A stretch of DNA of 7,677 bases from a virus (taxonomy: Duplodnaviria; Heunggongvirae; Uroviricota; Caudoviricetes): positions 1 through 7,677 of the IMG/VR virus record IMGVR_UViG_2681813234_000009. The stretch is one strand, 5' to 3'. Below the pieces are notes generated by a model. The model did not search any database. It was given only the letters and a program-made list of their open reading frames with translations, and was not told where the DNA came from. The position numbers and the translations under genes were made by a program. Positions 1 to 7,677 of this stretch are shown here, in pieces. Each line of letters begins with the position of its first letter. Position 1 is the first letter of the stretch.

Positions 1-426
1 TCAATGTACTGCCACAGCATTTCCTGCCGGGCCACCACGGTTCATCTGATTGAAACCGGCGATTGCCACTGCGACAAAATCATCAGCGTCTCTCACCAGT
101 CGTTCCCGCGTCTCCACCAACTCCCGAAAATAGACTGAACTGTGGCTGCGCATCCGGGCCACCAGCAGAGGTGGCATTGCTTTTTCGATCGCTGGTAACA
201 ACGCCTGAATTTTTTCAACCGCATCAGTGGTGTCTTTCTCCACCCAGCGGAAAATTTTCTGGGTATTACGAGCCAGGGCTTCTGGATGGCTGTCGTCGTA
301 CAGTTCCGGGGACGTCATTCCCAGTTCGAAATAAGCCCTGGTTATCTTGGCCGCCGGAACTTTTTCACCATCCGGACGCGCCCAGGCATTCATAGCCATG
401 CGGATGTGTTCATGCTTGATTTTCAT
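1..426 (-). CDS. CII-like phage regulatory protein (YdaT / CP76-type), 141 aa
   Basis: Complete ORF on the minus strand; stop codon is revcomp of nt 1-3 (tca). Lies directly downstream of the Cro-like gene with an ATGA start/stop overlap, the classic cro-cII arrangement. The N-terminus MKIKHEHI matches my recollection of YdaT-type proteins; family assignment is from memory, not a search. Confidence 0.55.
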   Translation of the reverse strand: MKIKHEHIRMAMNAWARPDGEKVPAAKITRAYFELGMTSPELYDDSHPEALARNTQKIFRWVEKDTTDAVEKIQALLPAIEKAMPPLLVARMRSHSSVYFRELVETRERLVRDADDFVAVAIAGFNQMNRGGPAGNAVAVH

Positions 427-650
427 GAATCATTCTTTCCTTCGTTCAAGGTGTTATCCTTCTTTTTGTAAAGTTCTGGGTTCAAAGATAATTTTCCCTT
501 GGAGTATGCGGCAGCTTCCGCGGCCCTCCCCTTGGGAACTATTTCACCAGGACGTTTGCGCCACATGTATATAGCTTCACGGGTTATCCCATAAAAATCG
601 GCAACTCTCTGAACAGAGCCAAAAAACTGGACAAGTTCATCAACTCGCAT
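423..650 (-). CDS. Cro-like HTH transcriptional regulator (YdaS/DicC-type), 75 aa
   Basis: Small basic protein with an HTH-like segment (VADFYGITREAIYMWRK). Strong SD AGGAGG 5 nt upstream of the ATG on the minus strand (plus-strand 651-660 ttcaccctcc). Divergent from the CI-like repressor across an operator-rich intergenic region. Confidence 0.7.
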   Translation of the reverse strand: MRVDELVQFFGSVQRVADFYGITREAIYMWRKRPGEIVPKGRAAEAAAYSKGKLSLNPELYKKKDNTLNEGKNDS

Positions 651-742
651 TTCACCCTCCTAAAACTAAGTATTTTTAGATTAAAGGATAATTTTTTTTA
701 GGTCAATGCAATCTAAAATAATTTATATTCAATTCACGGGAG
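651..742. promoter_or_regulatory. Divergent promoter/operator region between cro-like and cI-like genes (OR analog)
   Basis: 92 bp AT-rich intergenic region between divergent regulators. Contains a 20 bp imperfect palindrome CTAAAACTAAGTATTTTTAG (660-679, 16/20 symmetric) and a second inverted pair TTTTAG(695-700)...CTAAAA(713-718). Individual -10/-35 elements were not confidently resolved. Confidence 0.55.
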
Positions 743-1393
743 ATGATGATGGAAAGCCTTGGCATTAGGCTTAAGAGACTCAGAAAAGACAAGGGACTGA
801 CCCAAGTCGAACTGGGCAAGCTTTCTGGCGTAACAGGGGTAACTATAGGGTACTGGGAGAAAGACCTAAACGAACCCGGTAGCAAAGCTCTTAGTAAATT
901 AGCCCAAGCACTAGGAACTACTGAGTCCTATCTCCTATATGGAGTATCGTCTACTGAACCTACCCTTGTGCAGAACAATTCAGGCACCCAAATCCCCTAT
1001 CTTTCATGGGGGGAAGCAATTTCTTTCCTAATTTTAGAAGGAGAGAAAACTATGGGAAATGCCGACAGAATCACCACATTCTTTGACGTCAAGGAGGGGG
1101 ATTTTGCCGTTTCAATGCCTGATGACACTATGCACAACCCATCAGGGTCGCCAAGCATTCCGGTTGGTGCCACAGTGATCATGAGGCCTAGAGAAAAATA
1201 TAAAAATGGTAGTATCGTCGCTGTAATAGTCCCAGATCCGCTTACAAACGAACCATCTATGACTATAAAAAAATTAGTCATCGACGGAAAACTCGTGTAT
1301 TTAAGCCCCCTCAATCCTCGCTATCAATCGTCCTTACTGACACCTGAATGTAAAATTGTTGCTGTAGCAAAAGGTGTGCAGTTCAGCCTATAG
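743..1393 (+). CDS. CI-like prophage repressor, N-terminal HTH (XRE-type) plus C-terminal S24 (LexA/CI-like) peptidase domain, 216 aa
   Basis: N-terminus LKRLRKDKGLTQVELGKLSGVTGVTIGYWE is a typical HTH. C-terminal region aligns by eye to the lambda CI/LexA C-terminal domain (AVSMPDD Ser motif, NGSIVAV, TIKKL Lys motif, LSPLNP). Three consecutive ATGs at 743/746/749; GGGAG at 738-742 gives best spacing for the third ATG (749). Confidence 0.85.
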   Translation: MMMESLGIRLKRLRKDKGLTQVELGKLSGVTGVTIGYWEKDLNEPGSKALSKLAQALGTTESYLLYGVSSTEPTLVQNNSGTQIPYLSWGEAISFLILEGEKTMGNADRITTFFDVKEGDFAVSMPDDTMHNPSGSPSIPVGATVIMRPREKYKNGSIVAVIVPDPLTNEPSMTIKKLVIDGKLVYLSPLNPRYQSSLLTPECKIVAVAKGVQFSL

Positions 1394-1416
1394 CTTCCAC
1401 TTTGTTTTTCAATCAG

Positions 1417-1441
1417 AGGTCGGCTTTGTCGACCTTTTTTA
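1417..1441 (+). terminator. Rho-independent terminator after the cI-like gene
   Basis: Stem AGGTCG(1417-1422) / CGACCT(1430-1435) with a 7-nt loop, followed by TTTTTT (1436-1441), 24 nt after the cI-like stop. Confidence 0.6.
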
Positions 1442-1463
1442 AATATATCTAGATCACACTTGA

Positions 1464-1493
1464 CTATAAAACTAAATAGATTTAGTTTTATAG
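1464..1493. promoter_or_regulatory. 30 bp palindromic operator-like site (possible OL analog) downstream of cI-like gene
   Basis: ctataaaactaaat-ag-atttagttttatag: two perfect 14 bp inverted arms around a 2 bp centre. Shares the 9-mer TAAAACTAA with the OR region (661-669). Preceded by TTGACT (1460-1465). Confidence 0.4.
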
Positions 1494-1669
1494 TATACCA
1501 CCCCACCCCGCCCCACAGAACGCAGGGCAATACTTCGAGTTACCAGGCAGTGGTCAGGGGTTAAGTAGCCAGCCCGAGGCGTAAGAACATGACGGCAGGG
1601 TTCAACTTTAATAACTATGCAGCAGGTTTTTGTTCCGCTACCCCGGCGTTAAGGGGACATGAGGTCAAC

Positions 1670-1822
1670 ATGGATACTATCGATCTTGGCAACAACGAAT
1701 CTCTGGTATACGGCGTGTTTCCCAACCAGGACGGCACATTCACCGCGATGACGTATACCAAAAGCAAAACGTTTAAAACCGAATCTGGCGCGCGTCGCTG
1801 GTTAGCCAGAAATACTGACTGA
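1670..1822 (+). CDS. ydfA: YdfA-like small prophage protein (DUF1391-type), 50 aa
   Basis: Internal ATG at 1670 with GAGG 5 nt upstream. Product MDTIDLGNNESLVYGVFPNQDGTFTAMTYTKSKTFKTESGARRWLARNTD matches my recollection of Qin-prophage YdfA. The longer track ORF from 1589 has no obvious RBS. Confidence 0.6.
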   Translation: MDTIDLGNNESLVYGVFPNQDGTFTAMTYTKSKTFKTESGARRWLARNTD

Positions 1823-1833
1823 TGAGGTTGACT

Positions 1834-2208
1834 ATGGAATTTAAAGATTTACCAATGCAATTCCAGGAAATGGCAGCGAATATAGTTCGTTCCCAACTGG
1901 CGACTCTTGACCTGAGTACCGTAGAAAAAGAAACCATAGATAATATATCCGGTAACGTGCGCCGTGCCTTTATCGGGTTGTACGAAGAGAAGCAGCACTC
2001 TGATAAGCATGATTCCTCTGAAAAATACTTCCTGGAATTAATGGATATCATTAACAAGGGGTTTGGTTTGTTGATGGAAAAGAAAGGGATTCGAATAGAA
2101 CCCCTTAAAAACCATTTTACTGAGTGCAACATTAATTCCTGTGATTTAAAGCATCCCACTTCAGATGGGAAAGTTGAAGCCAACTATAAAATATCAATTA
2201 ATCATTAA
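1834..2208 (+). CDS. Hypothetical protein, 124 aa (start chosen at MEFKDL with GAGG RBS)
   Basis: ORF track 1822-2208; ATG at 1834 is preceded by GAGG (1823-1826). Protein is charged and soluble-looking with no family I recognise. The 3' half is distinctly AT-rich. Confidence 0.5.
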   Translation: MEFKDLPMQFQEMAANIVRSQLATLDLSTVEKETIDNISGNVRRAFIGLYEEKQHSDKHDSSEKYFLELMDIINKGFGLLMEKKGIRIEPLKNHFTECNINSCDLKHPTSDGKVEANYKISINH

Positions 2209-2265
2209 GTTCTCCACGGGTAAGGTGGAGAACATGCGCCGGACACGGATAAATCTCCGGCATGC
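2209..2265. terminator. Putative bidirectional terminator between convergent genes
   Basis: Perfect 9 bp stem GTTCTCCAC(2209-2217) / GTGGAGAAC(2225-2233) with a 7-nt loop, directly after the plus-strand stop. A second imperfect hairpin CATGCGCCGG...CCGGCATG (2233-2265) is followed by CTCTTT. Sits between the plus-strand ORF end (2208) and the minus-strand gene end (2287). Confidence 0.4.
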
Positions 2266-2286
2266 TCTTTAACATTCTGGATATTC

Positions 2287-2733
2287 CTAACTACAAAGAA
2301 ATCGCATCAATTTAGATTTTGTGGGCAGCTTCTCTTGTTGTTCGATGGAAACGCCTATTTTGATCTGTGTTTTTAAGATCGCAATATCTTTAAGTGATGA
2401 CCAAATATGAACATCCGTTTTTTCCAGAATTTTTAACTGCATTTTCAATTCAGAATCAGAATATTTTTCTGCATCATCAAAAAGCTGCAAATATTCTGCG
2501 GATTTTCTCATGGCGTTACCTGACTTTTGTCCGAATCCATAAATCGTTTGGACGGTTGCGATCACAACAATAAAAACGCCAGAAATTTCCGGAATGAATC
2601 CGCCAATGACAGATGAACCGAGGATAATACTCACCACTGAGAGAAGTTTATCGAGACGACCAGTTGCTACCGAAAATAGTTGCTCAAGAAAATAGCCATA
2701 TAAAATTCTGTCAAGAATATCATCCCGGTCCAT
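2287..2733 (-). CDS. Small membrane protein with two predicted transmembrane helices, 148 aa; function unknown (candidate exclusion/abortive-infection effector)
   Basis: Minus-strand ORF with AGGTGA 6 nt upstream of the ATG. Two hydrophobic helices (LLSVVSIILGSSVIGGFI and GVFIVVIATVQTIYGF) separated by a short PEIS turn, then a roughly 80-aa charged helical C-terminus. Strongly AT-rich versus flanking phage genes and opposite in orientation to the surrounding operon. Confidence 0.65.
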   Translation of the reverse strand: MDRDDILDRILYGYFLEQLFSVATGRLDKLLSVVSIILGSSVIGGFIPEISGVFIVVIATVQTIYGFGQKSGNAMRKSAEYLQLFDDAEKYSDSELKMQLKILEKTDVHIWSSLKDIAILKTQIKIGVSIEQQEKLPTKSKLMRFLCS

Positions 2734-3194
2734 ACATCATCACCTGCTTGTTTGGTTGTTGCTGTTCCCCCTCTCCTCCGAAGGAGCTGGAGATGGTTTT
2801 GGTCGAATGTTTTTCTCTGGTATGTGATCCCAGACTGTTTTATGTGTCGAATTGCCACCACCTGCTTGTGCTCTTTGCTCTGTCATATGATTTCCTTGGA
2901 TCGTTGGGGATATCCAGATTATACAGATTTCTTGTCGTTGGGGAATGACAGGAACCACCTCGCCTGACGTGGTTAAAAGCAGGCACACAACACGAAAGCG
3001 CACGGCGAAGTCATTTCTCCCTCTGTTGCGTGTCGCCGGTATCTTCGACCGTGCGCTTCCGGTTGTGGCACTCCGCGAAATGGCGCGGCGGTAAGTATGG
3101 CGGGGTTATCCTTACCCCCACTGGTAGCACCGGGTTGTCAGGTTGACCATACGCCTGAGTGACAACCCCGCCACAACATCTCCATGTTGAGGCT

Positions 3195-3249
3195 TGTGTG
3201 AGACCTTTGGCGGCATCAGTTTAATTGCTGGCTGATGTCCGCCCTTTTT
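3195..3249 (+). ncRNA. dicF: DicF-like small RNA (3' end defined by intrinsic terminator); 5' end approximate
   Basis: Terminator stem GGCGGCATCAG(3209-3219) / CTGATG(T)CCGCC(3232-3243), 11 bp with one bulge, then CTTTTT (3244-3249). Positioned immediately upstream of dicB as in Qin. Sequence and architecture resemble my recollection of E. coli DicF, but the 5' part differs. Confidence 0.5.
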
Positions 3250-3253
3250 AAAG

Positions 3254-3413
3254 TGAATTTTGTGATGCGGTGAATGCGGCTAAGCGCACGCGGAACAGTT
3301 AAAAAGCGATTAGTTCCCCCGTATCGGGGGTTTATGGGTTTCCCTGTATCCGGCGTTAATTGTTAACTGGTTAACGTCACCTGGAGGCACCAGGCACCGC
3401 ATCACAAAATTCA
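3254..3413. repeat. 19 bp perfect inverted repeat pair flanking about 120 nt of the dicB leader
   Basis: tgaattttgtgatgcggtg (3254-3272) is the exact reverse complement of caccgcatcacaaaattca (3395-3413). Enclosed region holds the hairpin CCCCCgtatcGGGGG and GTTAAC-tg-GTTAAC. The right arm ends 17 nt before the dicB ATG. Confidence 0.7.
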
Positions 3414-3430
3414 TTGTTGAGGATGCGATA

Positions 3431-3613
3431 ATGGAAACGTTATTACCAAACGTCAATACGTCTGAAGGTTGTTTTGAAATTGGTGTCAGAATCAGTAACC
3501 CTGTATTTACTGAAGATGCCATTAACAAGAGAAAACACGAACGGGAGCTATTAAATCAAATATGCATTGTTTCAATGCTGGCCCGTTTACGCCTGATGCA
3601 AAAAGGACGCTGA
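3431..3613 (+). CDS. dicB: Cell division inhibitor DicB, 60 aa
   Basis: METLLPNVNTSEGCFEIGVRISNPVFTEDAINKRKHERELLNQICIVSMLARLRLMQKGR closely matches my recollection of E. coli Qin DicB. GAGGA RBS upstream. Preceded by the DicF-like element, the same order as in Qin. Confidence 0.9.
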   Translation: METLLPNVNTSEGCFEIGVRISNPVFTEDAINKRKHERELLNQICIVSMLARLRLMQKGR

Positions 3614-3615
3614 CA

Positions 3616-3819
3616 ATGAATACAGTATTTGCACTCGTTCTGACAGTTTTTCTTAATACAGGCGAGCCAGTCGATCTTGTTATTGGTATACATGACTCAA
3701 TGAAAGAATGCATGGCTGCCGCAGCGGAACAGAAAATTCCCGGCAACTGTTATCCGGTTGATAAAGTTATTCACATGGACAATAACGAAATCCCGGCAGG
3801 ACTTAAAACAGCACCGTAA
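3616..3819 (+). CDS. ydfD: YdfD-like small membrane/lysis protein, 67 aa
   Basis: ATG at 3616, 2 nt after the dicB stop. MNTVFALVLTVFLNTGEPVDLVIGIHDSMKECMAAAAEQKIPGNCYPVDKVIH... has a hydrophobic N-terminal helix and matches my recollection of Qin YdfD. The longer track ORF from 3562 overlaps dicB and is unlikely. Confidence 0.8.
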   Translation: MNTVFALVLTVFLNTGEPVDLVIGIHDSMKECMAAAAEQKIPGNCYPVDKVIHMDNNEIPAGLKTAP

Positions 3820-3899
3820 TTAATATCCGGTTTCATTTTTATATGCCAGCAATGGCAGGGATTTGTTCACCCTTAAATCTGTAATGAGGTTAAAACAAA

Positions 3900-6371
3900 A
3901 TGAGTAAAGTCTTTATTTGCGCCGCCATTCCGGACGAACAGGCAATAAAGGAAGAAGGTGCAGTCGCTGTAGCCACTGCCATTGAAGCCGGCGACGAACG
4001 CCGCGCCCGAGCCAAATTTACCTGGCAATTCCTGGAGCAATATCCGGCTGCTCAGGACTGCGCTTATAAATTTCTTGTTTGCGAGGATAAACCCGGCATG
4101 CCCCGCCCTGCCATCGACTCCTGGGATACCGAATATATGCAGGAAAACTGCTGGGATGAGGAATCCGCTTCCTTTATTCCGGTCGAACCAGAATCCGATC
4201 CGATGAACGTCAATTTTGACAAGCTGTCCCCTGAAGTACAGAACGCGGTCCTGGTTAAGTTCGACACATGTGAAAACATCACCGTTGATATGGTTATTAG
4301 CGCACAGGAATTGTTGCAGGAAGACATGGCAACATTCGACGGACATATCGTTGAAGCGTTGATGAAAATGCCAGAAGTTAACGCCATGTATCCGGAGCTT
4401 AAGTTGCACGCCATTGGGTGGGTTAAGCATAAATGTATTCCTGGTGCTAAATGGCCCGAAATTCAGGCAGAGATGCGCATCTGGAAAAAACGTCGCGAAG
4501 GTGAACGCAAGGAAACCGGAAAATACACGTCTGTTGTTGATCTCGCCCGCGCCAGAGCCAATCAACAGTACACTGACAATTCAACAGGAAAAATCAGCCC
4601 GGTCATTGCTGCCACTCATCGCGAATACAAGCAGACATGGAAAACACTGGATGACGAACTGGCCTACGCTCTCTGGCCTGGTGATGTGGATGCCGGAAAC
4701 ATTGACGGCAGCATCCATCGCTGGGCAAAAAATGAAGTTATCGACAACGACCGCGAAGACTGGAAGCGTATCTCGGCATCAATGCGCAAACAGCCTGATG
4801 CCCTTCGCTACGACCGACAGACTATTTTTGGCCTTGTCCGTGAACGTCCGATCGACATTCACAAAGACCCTGTGGCACTGAACAAATACATTACTGAATA
4901 CCTGACTACAAAGGGCGTGTTTGAAGATGAAGGAACAAATCAGAGCGCAACTGATACTCTCTCGTCGCCAGTACCAGAAACTGATGCAGTGGAAACGGCA
5001 ATTCCGGACAACGAAAAAACCGAATGCAAAGTTGAAGTCGAACCATCTGTAGAGCGTGAGGGGCCGTTCTACTTCCTCTTCACAGATAAGGATGGCGAAA
5101 AATATGGTCGCGCAAACAAACTTTCTGGTCTGAATAAGGCGCTGACTGCAGGGGCTACTGAAATCACGAAAGAAGAATATTTTGCCCGTAAAAACGGTAC
5201 ATACTCAGGTTCACAACAAAATACTGGTGCATCTGACACGACCGCACAACCAGAGCCGGTAAAAGTTACCGCTGACGAAGTAAACAAAATTATGCAGGCA
5301 GCCAATATCAGCCAGCCTGACGCCGATAAGTTGCTTGCTGTATCACGTGGTGAATTTGTTGCAGGGATTAGCGACCCGAATGATCCGAAATGGGTGAAGG
5401 GGATTGAAACCCGCGATTCAGTGAATCAGAACCAGCAAGAAACGGAACAGAACGACCAGAAAGCGGAACAAAACAGCCCAAATGCGTTACAAAACGAGCC
5501 AGAAACGAAACAACCTGAGCCAGTAGCGCAACAGGAAGCGGAAAAAGTCTGCACCGCCTGCGGTCAGACCGGCGGCGGCAACTGCCCTGATTGTGGTGCG
5601 GTGATGGGCGACGCAACATACCAAGAAACATTCGATGACAAGAACCAGGTTGAAGTTCAGGAAGACGATTCGGAGAAAATGGAAGGCGCTGAACATCCAC
5701 ACAAAGAGAATGCTGGCAGCGCTCAGGATCACGCCAGCGATAGTGAAACTGGCGAGACGGCAGATCCCTTAATTACGGTGAACGGTCATCACGTTATCAC
5801 ATCCACCAGCAGGACGTGTGACCATCTAATGATCGACCTTGAAACCATGGGAAAAAATCCTGATGCCCCGATTATCTCAATAGGTGCAATATTTTTCGAT
5901 CCGCAAACCGGAGATATGGGACCGGAATTTAGTAAGACTATCGATCTGGAAACTGCTGGCGGAGTCATTGATCGGGACACCATTAAATGGTGGCTTAAGC
6001 AATCACGCGAAGCGCAATCTGCCATTATGACCGATGAAATCCCGTTAGATGATGCACTGTTACAATTGCGGGAATTTATCGACGAAAACTCCGGTGAATT
6101 TTTTGTTCAGGTCTGGGGAAATGGAGCCAACTTCGACAACACGATTTTGCGCCGTTCATACGAACGGCAGGGGATCCCCTGCCCGTGGCGTTACTACAAC
6201 GATCGCGATGTACGCACAATCGTTGAGCTGGGGAAAGCCATAGACTTCGATGCCAGAACGGCTATTCCATTCGAAGGTGAGCGCCATAATGCACTTGATG
6301 ACGCCCGTTACCAGGCAAAATACGTTTCAGCAATCTGGCAAAAACTGATCCCGAATCCGGTTGATTTTTAA
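3900..6371 (+). CDS. ydfE: Large YdfE-like prophage protein, 823 aa: N-terminal YdfE-homologous region, low-complexity Q/E/N-rich linker, CxxC-x7-CxxC motif, C-terminal DEDDh-type 3'-5' exonuclease domain
   Basis: Uninterrupted 2.47 kb ORF with GAGG upstream. N-terminus MSKVFICAAIPDEQAIKEEGAVAVA... matches my recollection of K-12 YdfE. C-terminus carries DEDDh motifs: D646-x-E648 (MIDLETMG), N-FD (GNGANFDNT) and H796-x4-D801 (HNALDDARY). Cys551/554/562/565 form a CxxC-x7-CxxC motif. Confidence 0.85.
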   Translation: MSKVFICAAIPDEQAIKEEGAVAVATAIEAGDERRARAKFTWQFLEQYPAAQDCAYKFLVCEDKPGMPRPAIDSWDTEYMQENCWDEESASFIPVEPESDPMNVNFDKLSPEVQNAVLVKFDTCENITVDMVISAQELLQEDMATFDGHIVEALMKMPEVNAMYPELKLHAIGWVKHKCIPGAKWPEIQAEMRIWKKRREGERKETGKYTSVVDLARARANQQYTDNSTGKISPVIAATHREYKQTWKTLDDELAYALWPGDVDAGNIDGSIHRWAKNEVIDNDREDWKRISASMRKQPDALRYDRQTIFGLVRERPIDIHKDPVALNKYITEYLTTKGVFEDEGTNQSATDTLSSPVPETDAVETAIPDNEKTECKVEVEPSVEREGPFYFLFTDKDGEKYGRANKLSGLNKALTAGATEITKEEYFARKNGTYSGSQQNTGASDTTAQPEPVKVTADEVNKIMQAANISQPDADKLLAVSRGEFVAGISDPNDPKWVKGIETRDSVNQNQQETEQNDQKAEQNSPNALQNEPETKQPEPVAQQEAEKVCTACGQTGGGNCPDCGAVMGDATYQETFDDKNQVEVQEDDSEKMEGAEHPHKENAGSAQDHASDSETGETADPLITVNGHHVITSTSRTCDHLMIDLETMGKNPDAPIISIGAIFFDPQTGDMGPEFSKTIDLETAGGVIDRDTIKWWLKQSREAQSAIMTDEIPLDDALLQLREFIDENSGEFFVQVWGNGANFDNTILRRSYERQGIPCPWRYYNDRDVRTIVELGKAIDFDARTAIPFEGERHNALDDARYQAKYVSAIWQKLIPNPVDF

Positions 6372-6437
6372 TGTTCAACCCTGATCGCCGTCCCCGAATT
6401 ATATTGGCGGCGGTCATGCTGTAAGGCACGTGACCAC

Positions 6438-6689
6438 ATGTACGAATTAACTCTATCGCCAGCAGAGATTCAAGAGATCACGAAATACGAGCGATACACA
6501 AAACAGCAACACCAGTTAAGGCTGCACGGTATCCCATTTGTAATCGGTCCTAAAAACGAACCAATAGTTCTTCGCAGGGATATTCCACACGGACTGACTA
6601 CGATGCCAAAAGCACCTGAACTGGTTTCCGCTGAACCCGATTTTGAGGCGCTGAACAATGGGAAGACCAAGAAAAAACAAAAAAGATAA
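6438..6689 (+). CDS. xis: Putative excisionase (Xis-like), 83 aa
   Basis: Small ORF immediately upstream of int, overlapping it by 32 nt as lambda xis overlaps int. N-terminus MYELTL resembles lambda Xis MYLTL; basic C-terminal tail NNGKTKKKQKR resembles the lambda Xis tail. Weak RBS. Confidence 0.55.
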   Translation: MYELTLSPAEIQEITKYERYTKQQHQLRLHGIPFVIGPKNEPIVLRRDIPHGLTTMPKAPELVSAEPDFEALNNGKTKKKQKR

Positions 6690-7677
6690 TGCACTACCAC
6701 CGCGTGTTAGATCGAATGGTTACAGTTACGTATGGAAACCCGAAGGAAGCACAAGAACTATAGGGCTCGGAAGAGTGCGGGAAACCAGCGTAGCTAAAGT
6801 CTGGCAAAATTATGAGCTGGAAAAAGCAAAACTCCACAACATAATGACAGTAGCTAAATTATGGCACATGTTTATGGACTCCCCTGCATTTACAGAACTG
6901 GCCCCCCGAACCCAAAAAGATTATCGGCAACATCAAAGGGCATTGTTGGCAGTATTCGGAAAAGTGCTTGCTGATAATGTAAAAATTGAACAGGTAAGAA
7001 TTTTCATGGATAAGCGAGGACTTGAGAGCAAGACCCAGGCAAACCATGAACTGGCAAGTCTGAGCCGTGTATACGGATGGGGATATGAGCGTGGGTATGT
7101 GAAAAATAATCCATGCAAAGGAGTCAGAAAATTCACACTTAAAGCCCGTACTGTTTACATCACCGATGAACAGTATGCTGCAATATATGCGGAAGCAATT
7201 CCACAGTTACGTATTGCAATGGAGATATCCTATCTTTGTGCGGCAAGGCTCGGTGATGTACTCGAGCTGAAATGGCAGGATATTATGGAGAAAGGGATTT
7301 ACATTGAGCAAAACAAGACCGGCACTAAACAAATCAAGGAATGGTCTCCGCGATTACGTACGGCGATCCAGTTAGCCCGAAATGTATCTTCCGGCACATG
7401 CGAGTATGTGATCAACACAACCAAAGGCGGGAAGGTAATAGCCAAGACGCTGAACAACTGGTGGAATCAGGCTAAACGTGCAGCCGAGCAAAAAGCCGGC
7501 GTTCCGTTTGGGTGCAACTTCCATGACATAAAAGCCAAAGGGATTTCAGATTACGAAGGCAGCAGTCGCGACAAACAAATTTTCAGTGGACACAAAACAG
7601 AAAATCAGGTGTTGATTTACGATCGTAAAACCAAAATAACACCAACACTGGATTTGCCGCTTGTGGTCAGTAAGTAG
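6658..7677 (+). CDS. int: Lambda-family tyrosine integrase, 339 aa, apparently intact
   Basis: N-terminus MGRPRKNKKDNALPPRVRSNGYSYVWKPEGSTRTIGLGR parallels the lambda Int arm-binding N-terminus as I recall it (MGRRRSHERRDLPPNLYIRNNGYYCYRDPRTGKEFGLGRD). Catalytic-region motifs AARLGD (Arg), FHDIKAKG, SGHKTENQVLIYD (His...Tyr). Stop TAG at 7675-7677 is the last triplet of the window. Confidence 0.9.
   Translation: MGRPRKNKKDNALPPRVRSNGYSYVWKPEGSTRTIGLGRVRETSVAKVWQNYELEKAKLHNIMTVAKLWHMFMDSPAFTELAPRTQKDYRQHQRALLAVFGKVLADNVKIEQVRIFMDKRGLESKTQANHELASLSRVYGWGYERGYVKNNPCKGVRKFTLKARTVYITDEQYAAIYAEAIPQLRIAMEISYLCAARLGDVLELKWQDIMEKGIYIEQNKTGTKQIKEWSPRLRTAIQLARNVSSGTCEYVINTTKGGKVIAKTLNNWWNQAKRAAEQKAGVPFGCNFHDIKAKGISDYEGSSRDKQIFSGHKTENQVLIYDRKTKITPTLDLPLVVSK

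Follow-up and report, generated by a model that had tools for sequence, protein, structure and literature searches.

A perfect palindrome downstream of a P22 c2-like repressor gene probably contains an OL1-type operator that covers the promoter of a dicB operon

DicB and DicF affect cell division and phage resistance and, in EHEC, virulence regulation. In the Qin prophage of Escherichia coli K-12, the promoter dicBp, which is PL-like by description, is located downstream of the repressor gene dicA and upstream of the ydfA-dicF-dicB-ydfD operon. Deletion of dicA increases the activity of dicBp 22-fold whereas deletion of dicC causes no derepression (PMC10448788). The cro-side operator Oc (TTGTTAGTCATAACTAACAA) is bound by DicA in vivo, and single-base changes in this operator abolish the binding (PMC3441716); the exact DicA site at dicB is rated as low-evidence (PMC7567609), and ChIP-seq of DicC in K-12 detected sites on both sides of dicA (PMC11430063). 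In phage P22, the operators OL1-3 and the promoter PL are located directly downstream of the repressor gene c2 and are followed by gene 24, which encodes an N-like antiterminator. In phage lambda, the repressor occludes the early-left promoter of the kil-type toxic genes as well as exo, xis and int; there are three repressor sites on the cro side and three OL sites, the operators are 17 bp long, the rexAB genes are located between cI and OL, and the cI protein is cleaved at an Ala-Gly bond with the help of RecA.

We analyzed a stretch of 7,677 nucleotides from a virus of the class Caudoviricetes (IMG/VR record IMGVR_UViG_2681813234_000009, positions 1 to 7,677; hereafter, the window), which represents the early-left arm of a Qin/dicB-type lambdoid prophage. 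The window contains the following genes and other features:

1-426, minus strand: YdaT-like gene
423-650, minus strand: Cro-like gene (P22_Cro family, 75 aa)
743-1393, plus strand: repressor gene with HTH_3 and Peptidase_S24 domains, encoding 216 aa when read from the first ATG (NCBI annotators place the start at 749)
about 1415-1440, plus strand: intrinsic terminator, a GGTCGGC/GTCGACC hairpin followed by T6 (-13 kcal/mol, z = -4.8), conserved in relatives
1463-1494: perfect inverted repeat with arms ACTATAAAACTAAAT and ATTTAGTTTTATAGT and a 2-nt centre
1670-1822, plus strand: ydfA (DUF1391, Pfam), the first conserved gene of the operon proposed to be controlled
3195-3244, plus strand: DicF-like small RNA (45.4 bits against an Rfam gathering score of 48, E = 3e-8)
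3431-3613, plus strand: dicB, cell-division inhibitor (Pfam DicB)
3616-3819, plus strand: ydfD-like gene (DUF1482, Pfam)
downstream of the ydfD-like gene, plus strand: gene of the exonuclease family (823 aa), then xis and int

On the plus strand, the order is repressor gene, terminator, palindrome, ydfA, dicF, dicB, exonuclease gene, xis and int, which puts the palindrome where an earlier note, made from the sequence of the window, had placed it, between the terminator of the repressor gene and the ydfA-dicF-dicB operon. No Rfam family matched the window at gathering thresholds, and the DicF-like RNA was missed by this default search because its score is just under the gathering score; a permissive search of 1394-3430 retrieved DicF and a weak STnc100-like match, and neither the palindrome and its vicinity nor the leader upstream of ydfA gave a match. 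Compared with the family consensus, the loop of the DicF-like RNA is shorter and its 5' end is different.

The repressor had been taken for a cI protein, and this identification holds for its C-terminal S24 domain, which is homologous to that of lambda cI and aligns with it at 26% identity (E = 3e-12), but not for its N-terminal domain, which is P22 c2-like. The latter domain, containing the HTH, is homologous to the respective domain of c2 and matches P22 c2 structures (E = 1.6e-7), and the c2 gene also has 216 codons. Moreover, this is not a straightforward SOS-cleavable cI: in the 26%-identity alignment (residues ~90-95, 128 and 176), Thr (DDTM) occupies the position of the lambda Ser nucleophile (GNSM) and Ala-Ile that of the Ala-Gly cleavage bond, with the Lys (KKL) kept. 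These features distinguish the C-terminal domain from that of the P22 repressor as well, and both Thr for Ser and Ala-Ile are found in all close relatives of the repressor; in a homolog that is 46% identical (L057), Ser is present and Ala-Gly is absent. Given the Thr at the nucleophile position and the lack of the Ala-Gly bond, the repressor may escape RecA-aided cleavage, as DicA does. In other respects, the two repressors differ: DicA consists of 135 aa and has no S24 domain, and its size and specificity are unrelated to those of the window repressor.

The inverted repeat at 1463-1494 spans 32 bp, with 15-nt arms (1463-1477 and 1480-1494). It was originally described as a 30-bp palindrome with perfect 14-bp arms, and the sequence of 1464-1493, CTATAAAACTAAAT-AG-ATTTAGTTTTATAG, indeed has fully complementary 14-nt arms that in fact extend by one more pair. 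Among the perfect inverted repeats of the window, it is the longest. Arms of 15 nt did not appear in either of two controls, 200 shuffles of the whole window that preserved dinucleotides (the maximum was 14, seen once) and 5000 shuffles of the AT-rich local stretch 1394-1500 (30% G+C), where the maximum was 11. The 9-mer TAAAACTAA, likewise reported in the earlier note as common to the OR palindrome and both arms, has exactly three copies in the window, at 661-669, 1467-1475 and, on the minus strand, 1482-1490.

The putative regulatory elements in and around the palindrome and on the cro side of the repressor gene are as follows:

663-682 (core 666-679): OR1-like operator AAACTAA-GTATTT-TTAGATT, overlapping the -10 of the cro promoter
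678-706, minus strand: PR-type promoter for cro, TTGACC-17-TAATCT
688-701: OR2-like weak site ATAATTTTTTTTAG
713-726: OR3-like site CTAAAATAATTTAT, overlapping TATATT, the proposed -10 of the promoter of the repressor gene
1439-1452: candidate OL2-like second operator TTAAATATATCTAG, differing from the core at two positions and separated from OL1 by the -35
1460-1465, plus strand: -35 hexamer TTGACT of the PL/dicBp type, with CTTGAC conserved; comparable hexamers are present in other immunity types and in P22
1469-1488: proposed OL1 operator AAACTAA-ATAGAT-TTAGTTT, with 7-bp half-sites AAWCTAA, sharing half-sites and spacing with 663-682; its 14-bp core is CTAAATAGATTTAG (1472-1485)
1483-1488, plus strand: proposed -10 hexamer TAGTTT (3/6 consensus), 17 nt after the -35 and within the right half-site

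The inner part of the palindrome (1469-1488) and the OR1-like site at 663-682 have the identical half-site consensus AAWCTAA and a 6-bp spacer. Five of the six copies of AAWCTAA in the window are in the two regulatory intergenic regions; inverted pairs with 6 nt between them are found at 663/676 and 1469/1482, and there is one further copy at 710. The form CTAA-N6-TTAG, with at most one mismatch, occurs at four sites in 7.7 kb, three on the cro side (666, 688 and 713) and one in the palindrome (1472), and at least four such sites were obtained in 1 of 5000 shuffles restricted to the two intergenic stretches. Over the whole window, counts of short motifs are not above chance; because the motif is AT-rich and lies in an AT-rich stretch, information comes only from where the sites lie, how they pair and how the local shuffles behave. 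The cro-side sites are 22 and 25 bp apart and overlap the cro-facing TTGACC-17-TAATCT and the repressor-facing TATATT -10, an arrangement that is the classical three-operator OR layout. On the OL side, there is one strong site and the two-mismatch candidate located 33 bp upstream of it, centre to centre, and no third site was seen.

The hexamer TTGACT, which the earlier note had reported to precede the palindrome, overlaps its left arm by 3 nt, and the proposed operator covers the spacer and the -10 of TTGACT-17-TAGTTT, a predicted promoter aimed at ydfA-dicF-dicB. The default promoter and terminator scan did not list this promoter because its -10 matches the consensus at only three of the six positions; at the palindrome, the default output was replaced by a laxer promoter scan combined with conservation. 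All plus-strand candidates that the laxer scan yielded between the repressor gene and ydfA are on the palindrome, and among these, TTGACT-17-TAGTTT is the one with a conserved position. Judging from the position of the -35 and -10 hexamers, transcription would start at about 1495 +/- 2.

Taken together, the palindrome most likely holds a promoter-proximal OL1-type operator, from which the repressor would occlude a PL/dicBp-type promoter. A dimer of the 216-aa repressor, through its P22 c2-like HTH, is predicted to bind the 20-bp dyad AAACTAA-N6-TTAGTTT at 1469-1488. Because this operator covers the spacer and the -10, the bound repressor would exclude RNA polymerase, and the ydfA-dicF-dicB-ydfD operon, which probably extends to the exonuclease gene, xis and int, would be kept off in the lysogen. 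These operators are probably shared with the Cro-like protein, and the weaker site at 1439-1452 may help cooperatively. We infer the binding, the repression and the transcription start from the anatomy of the site, its conservation, its co-variation with the repressor type and the parallels in P22 and K-12.

The sole promoter-like site that the default scan detected at this locus is on the minus strand, TTTATA (1470-1465)-17-TATATT (1447-1442), a 9/12 match that faces back into the repressor gene from its 3' end. It appears extremely improbable that this is the relevant promoter, regulated by the palindrome and producing a transcript antisense to that end of the gene, given that the region has fewer scan sites than expected by chance (3 vs 5.8), that these hexamers are not conserved in the sister subtypes and that the conserved CTTGAC faces the opposite way.

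The geometry of the proposed operator and promoter equals that of P22 OL1/PL and of K-12 dicBp, and the logic is the same as in lambda, in line with the analogy to OL/PL control drawn in the earlier note. In P22, the OL region has the same orientation relative to the repressor gene as in the window; PL, TTGACC-17-TAAATT, compares with TTGACT-17-TAGTTT, both with a weak, A/T-rich -10; the OL1 core, TTAAGAAGTCTTAA, begins 13 nt after the start of the -35 (12 nt in the window); and the half-site form xTAAR-N4-YTTAx is common to both. The next site upstream is 35 bp away in P22 and K-12, and the candidate second site of the window is 33 bp away. However, the outermost half-site base is different, CTAA...TTAG in the window compared to TTAA...TTAA in P22, and hence the specificity differs. 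The window also has two recognisable OL sites, one of them strong, as opposed to three in P22, and instead of gene 24, the promoter region is followed by ydfA-dicF-dicB, with no nutL recognised.

The K-12 Qin prophage shares with the window a homologous operon downstream of the repressor gene and a -35 (TTGACC in K-12) with a dyad on each side. The K-12 operators, however, are of the form TGTTAG...CTAACA, unlike AAACTAA...TTAGTTT in the window, and the TGTTAG-type dyad that would be expected under control by DicA is not present there. By its sequence, the proposed promoter is of the same kind as dicBp, with a different immunity specificity. The lambda operators likewise differ in sequence from those of the window, and the position of rexAB between cI and OL is another difference. 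Overall, the arrangement is ordinary for lambda- and P22-like phages and not a new mechanism.

A scan of viral contigs yielded 49 loci with the same repressor, and further loci were collected from E. coli and phage collections; 34 distinct post-repressor regions, representing ~50 loci with repressors 91-100% identical, were aligned. CTTGAC and AAAACTAAAT are invariant across the 34 aligned versions, and free variation is seen between the OL2-like site and the -35 and at the three bases that follow the -35. For the right half, four subtypes have TTTAG and the fifth combines CTTAT with the better -10 TATATT, a trade-off between the right half-site and the -10. At the -10 position, the sister subtypes have TAGATT (as in the L002 type) or TATATT, and they carry a better OL2-like site, TTAAATTAATTTAG, compared to TTAAATATATCTAG in the window. 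At a locus with a repressor that is 52% identical (L058), TTGCAA-17-TATATT with CTAAGTTATTTTAT occupies the equivalent place, and 33 bp upstream there is again a second site; all these repressors, that of L058 included, have nearly identical HTH helices.

The perfect 15-nt arms are restricted to the window's own subtype, which 21 of 5426 complete E. coli genomes carry; E. coli 442/2 (NZ_CP076282) and EC261 (NZ_AP027423) are examples of strains with this subtype. A sister-subtype form of the site is CTAAATACTTTTAG; in the sister subtypes, 11 of the 15 arm positions are paired, and the substitutions are not compensatory. Because the long perfect arms are not conserved, operator function does not itself explain them, and because the outer arms are not kept by the sister subtypes, function probably resides in the inner 14-20 bp of the palindrome; the outer six base pairs of either arm are peculiar to this subtype and probably not required. 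The OL-type operator suggested in the earlier note agrees with the sequence in its half-sites, overlap with a promoter, conservation, co-variation with the repressor type and geometry, with the correction that the full arms probably are not the operator.

The same pattern of conservation bears on the possibility that the palindrome functions as an RNA or DNA hairpin, that is, a back-up terminator that catches read-through from the repressor gene, a cruciform or a stem-loop protecting the operon transcript at its 5' end. The plus-strand RNA is indeed predicted to fold into a stable hairpin (-13.2 kcal/mol, z = -6.3). The stem, however, is nearly all A-U, with a single C-G pair near its outer end, and the 3' neighbour, ACCACCCC, contains no U-tract; hence the palindrome has neither the G+C-rich stem nor the U-tract of an intrinsic terminator, and the terminator scan does not list it, whereas the actual terminator is already in place 25 nt upstream. 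Furthermore, with transcription predicted to start at or after the right arm, the hairpin would be outside the transcript. Together with the lack of compensatory substitutions in relatives with the same repressor, this makes a hairpin function very unlikely.

Prophages that combine the same flanks with an unrelated repressor provide a further comparison. At the same position, these have a -35 of the TTGAC or TTTAC type followed by a dyad of their own that matches their own cro-side sites, with GTAAC-N4-GTTAC, TACC-N6-GGTA, AGTACAT and, in K-12, TGTTAG...CTAAC as the respective forms; altogether, such type-specific pairs of matching dyads are present in five immunity types. In one of these types, the downstream GGTAACTCTTGTTACC corresponds to the cro-side GGTAACAATAGTTAC, and in another, TACCCATGGGTA corresponds to TACCCACAGGTA; in a further type, AGTACAT words are found in both regions; and in K-12 Qin, TGTTAGCTATAGCATACA and TGTTAGTCATGGCTAATC flank TTGACC, with TTGTTAGTCATAACTAACAA as the cro-side counterpart. 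For six immunity types, we also computed a matrix of the longest words that cro-side and OL regions have in common, which is not cleanly diagonal, with T-runs and the shared TTGAC producing cross-matches; it was dropped as a statistic, and the argument for co-variation is based on the dyads themselves.

Homology between immunity types restarts at 1492-1497, which is the right edge of the palindrome, indicating that the site belongs to the exchangeable immunity cassette. The sharp mosaic breakpoints at ~432 and 1492-1497 enclose cro, the OR sites, the repressor gene, the terminator and OL/PL, and the flanks (ydaT on one side, the leader and ydfA on the other) are common to at least five repressor types, with flank matches in 4389 of the 5426 E. 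coli genomes.

These comparisons are difficult to reconcile with the view that the site is a promoter only, to which no repressor binds, and that the dyad and its likeness to the cro side are a by-product of AT-rich DNA or template switching. Such a view would accommodate the whole-window counts of short motifs, the limitation of the perfect arms to one subtype and the fact that, compared with the commonest sister subtype (L009 type), there are four arm differences, all in the right arm, each of which restores complementarity, as template switching would produce. Sigma-70 promoters require no specific spacer sequence, and yet AAAACTAAAT is invariant despite its location in the spacer; identical half-sites with the same 6-nt spacing are present at 663-682; and in this place, each of the other immunity types has a dyad that matches its own cro side. 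A promoter without repressor binding is therefore quite unlikely.

With regard to the protein that binds, Cro and the repressor share operators in lambdoid phages, so a role of the Cro-like protein at this site would add to repression by the cI-like repressor rather than replace it. A site used mainly by the Cro-like protein, or by a different factor (IHF or H-NS, for example), seems highly improbable: the AT-rich DNA is potentially curved, and in K-12, DicC binds on both sides of dicA (PMC11430063), but dicBp is derepressed by deletion of dicA and not of dicC (PMC10448788).

We therefore favor the operator reading, in which the perfection of the arms is a separate matter. The four right-arm differences from the L009 type may have arisen because a perfect ancestor decayed, because symmetry was selected or because template switching corrected a quasi-palindrome. 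A rather unlikely, if possible, extension is that, in the window's subtype, a quasi-palindromic OL1 has been perfected, by template-switch correction or by selection, into an operator that locks the toxic dicB operon off as a domesticated, SOS-unresponsive switch. If so, exact operator symmetry would have been gained at the cost of a weaker -10 (TAGTTT vs TAGATT or TATATT), and the locking would also rely on a repressor that is seemingly unable to cleave itself.

In an IMG/VR contig (L017), the inner operator of the sister type, ACTTTTAGATTT, is joined to an outer right arm of the window type, ATAGTATGCC, with an outer TATAGT. By its sequence, this locus looks like the product of an exchange inside the operator, and the mixture of arm types points to recombination among subtypes.

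The repressor type described here is represented in ~470 of the 5426 complete E. coli genomes, including O157:H7. The proposed control extends the scheme known from lambda, P22 and Qin to another specificity, with no new principle involved, and supplies a concrete candidate operator and promoter for one of the more common non-DicA immunity types guarding dicB/dicF operons in E. coli prophages. Assignment of a repressor and a site to each copy of dicB and dicF should help predict the timing of their expression.

The leader of ~170 nt that separates the predicted transcription start from ydfA (1497-1669) has no Rfam match, is highly conserved across unrelated immunity types and opens with a C-rich, G-poor run, CCACCCCACCCCGCCCCACAGAA; most of it is missing from K-12 Qin, in which respect the two loci differ. 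This leader might serve in Rho loading or antitermination, or it might belong to a 77-codon ORF (1589-1822) that runs into ydfA. Between dicF and dicB, 3256-3408 gives a partial match to the STnc100 sRNA family (35.8 bits against a gathering score of 47, E = 1e-5). Finally, the genes at 1822-2208 (plus strand) and 2287-2733 (minus strand), which occupy the place of ydfB/ydfC in other loci, contain no Pfam domains and match phrog_6937 and phrog_6315, respectively, both of unknown function. The second of these is on the opposite strand inside the operon and encodes a protein of hydrophobic-looking composition, as judged by eye; it may be a moron-type insertion.
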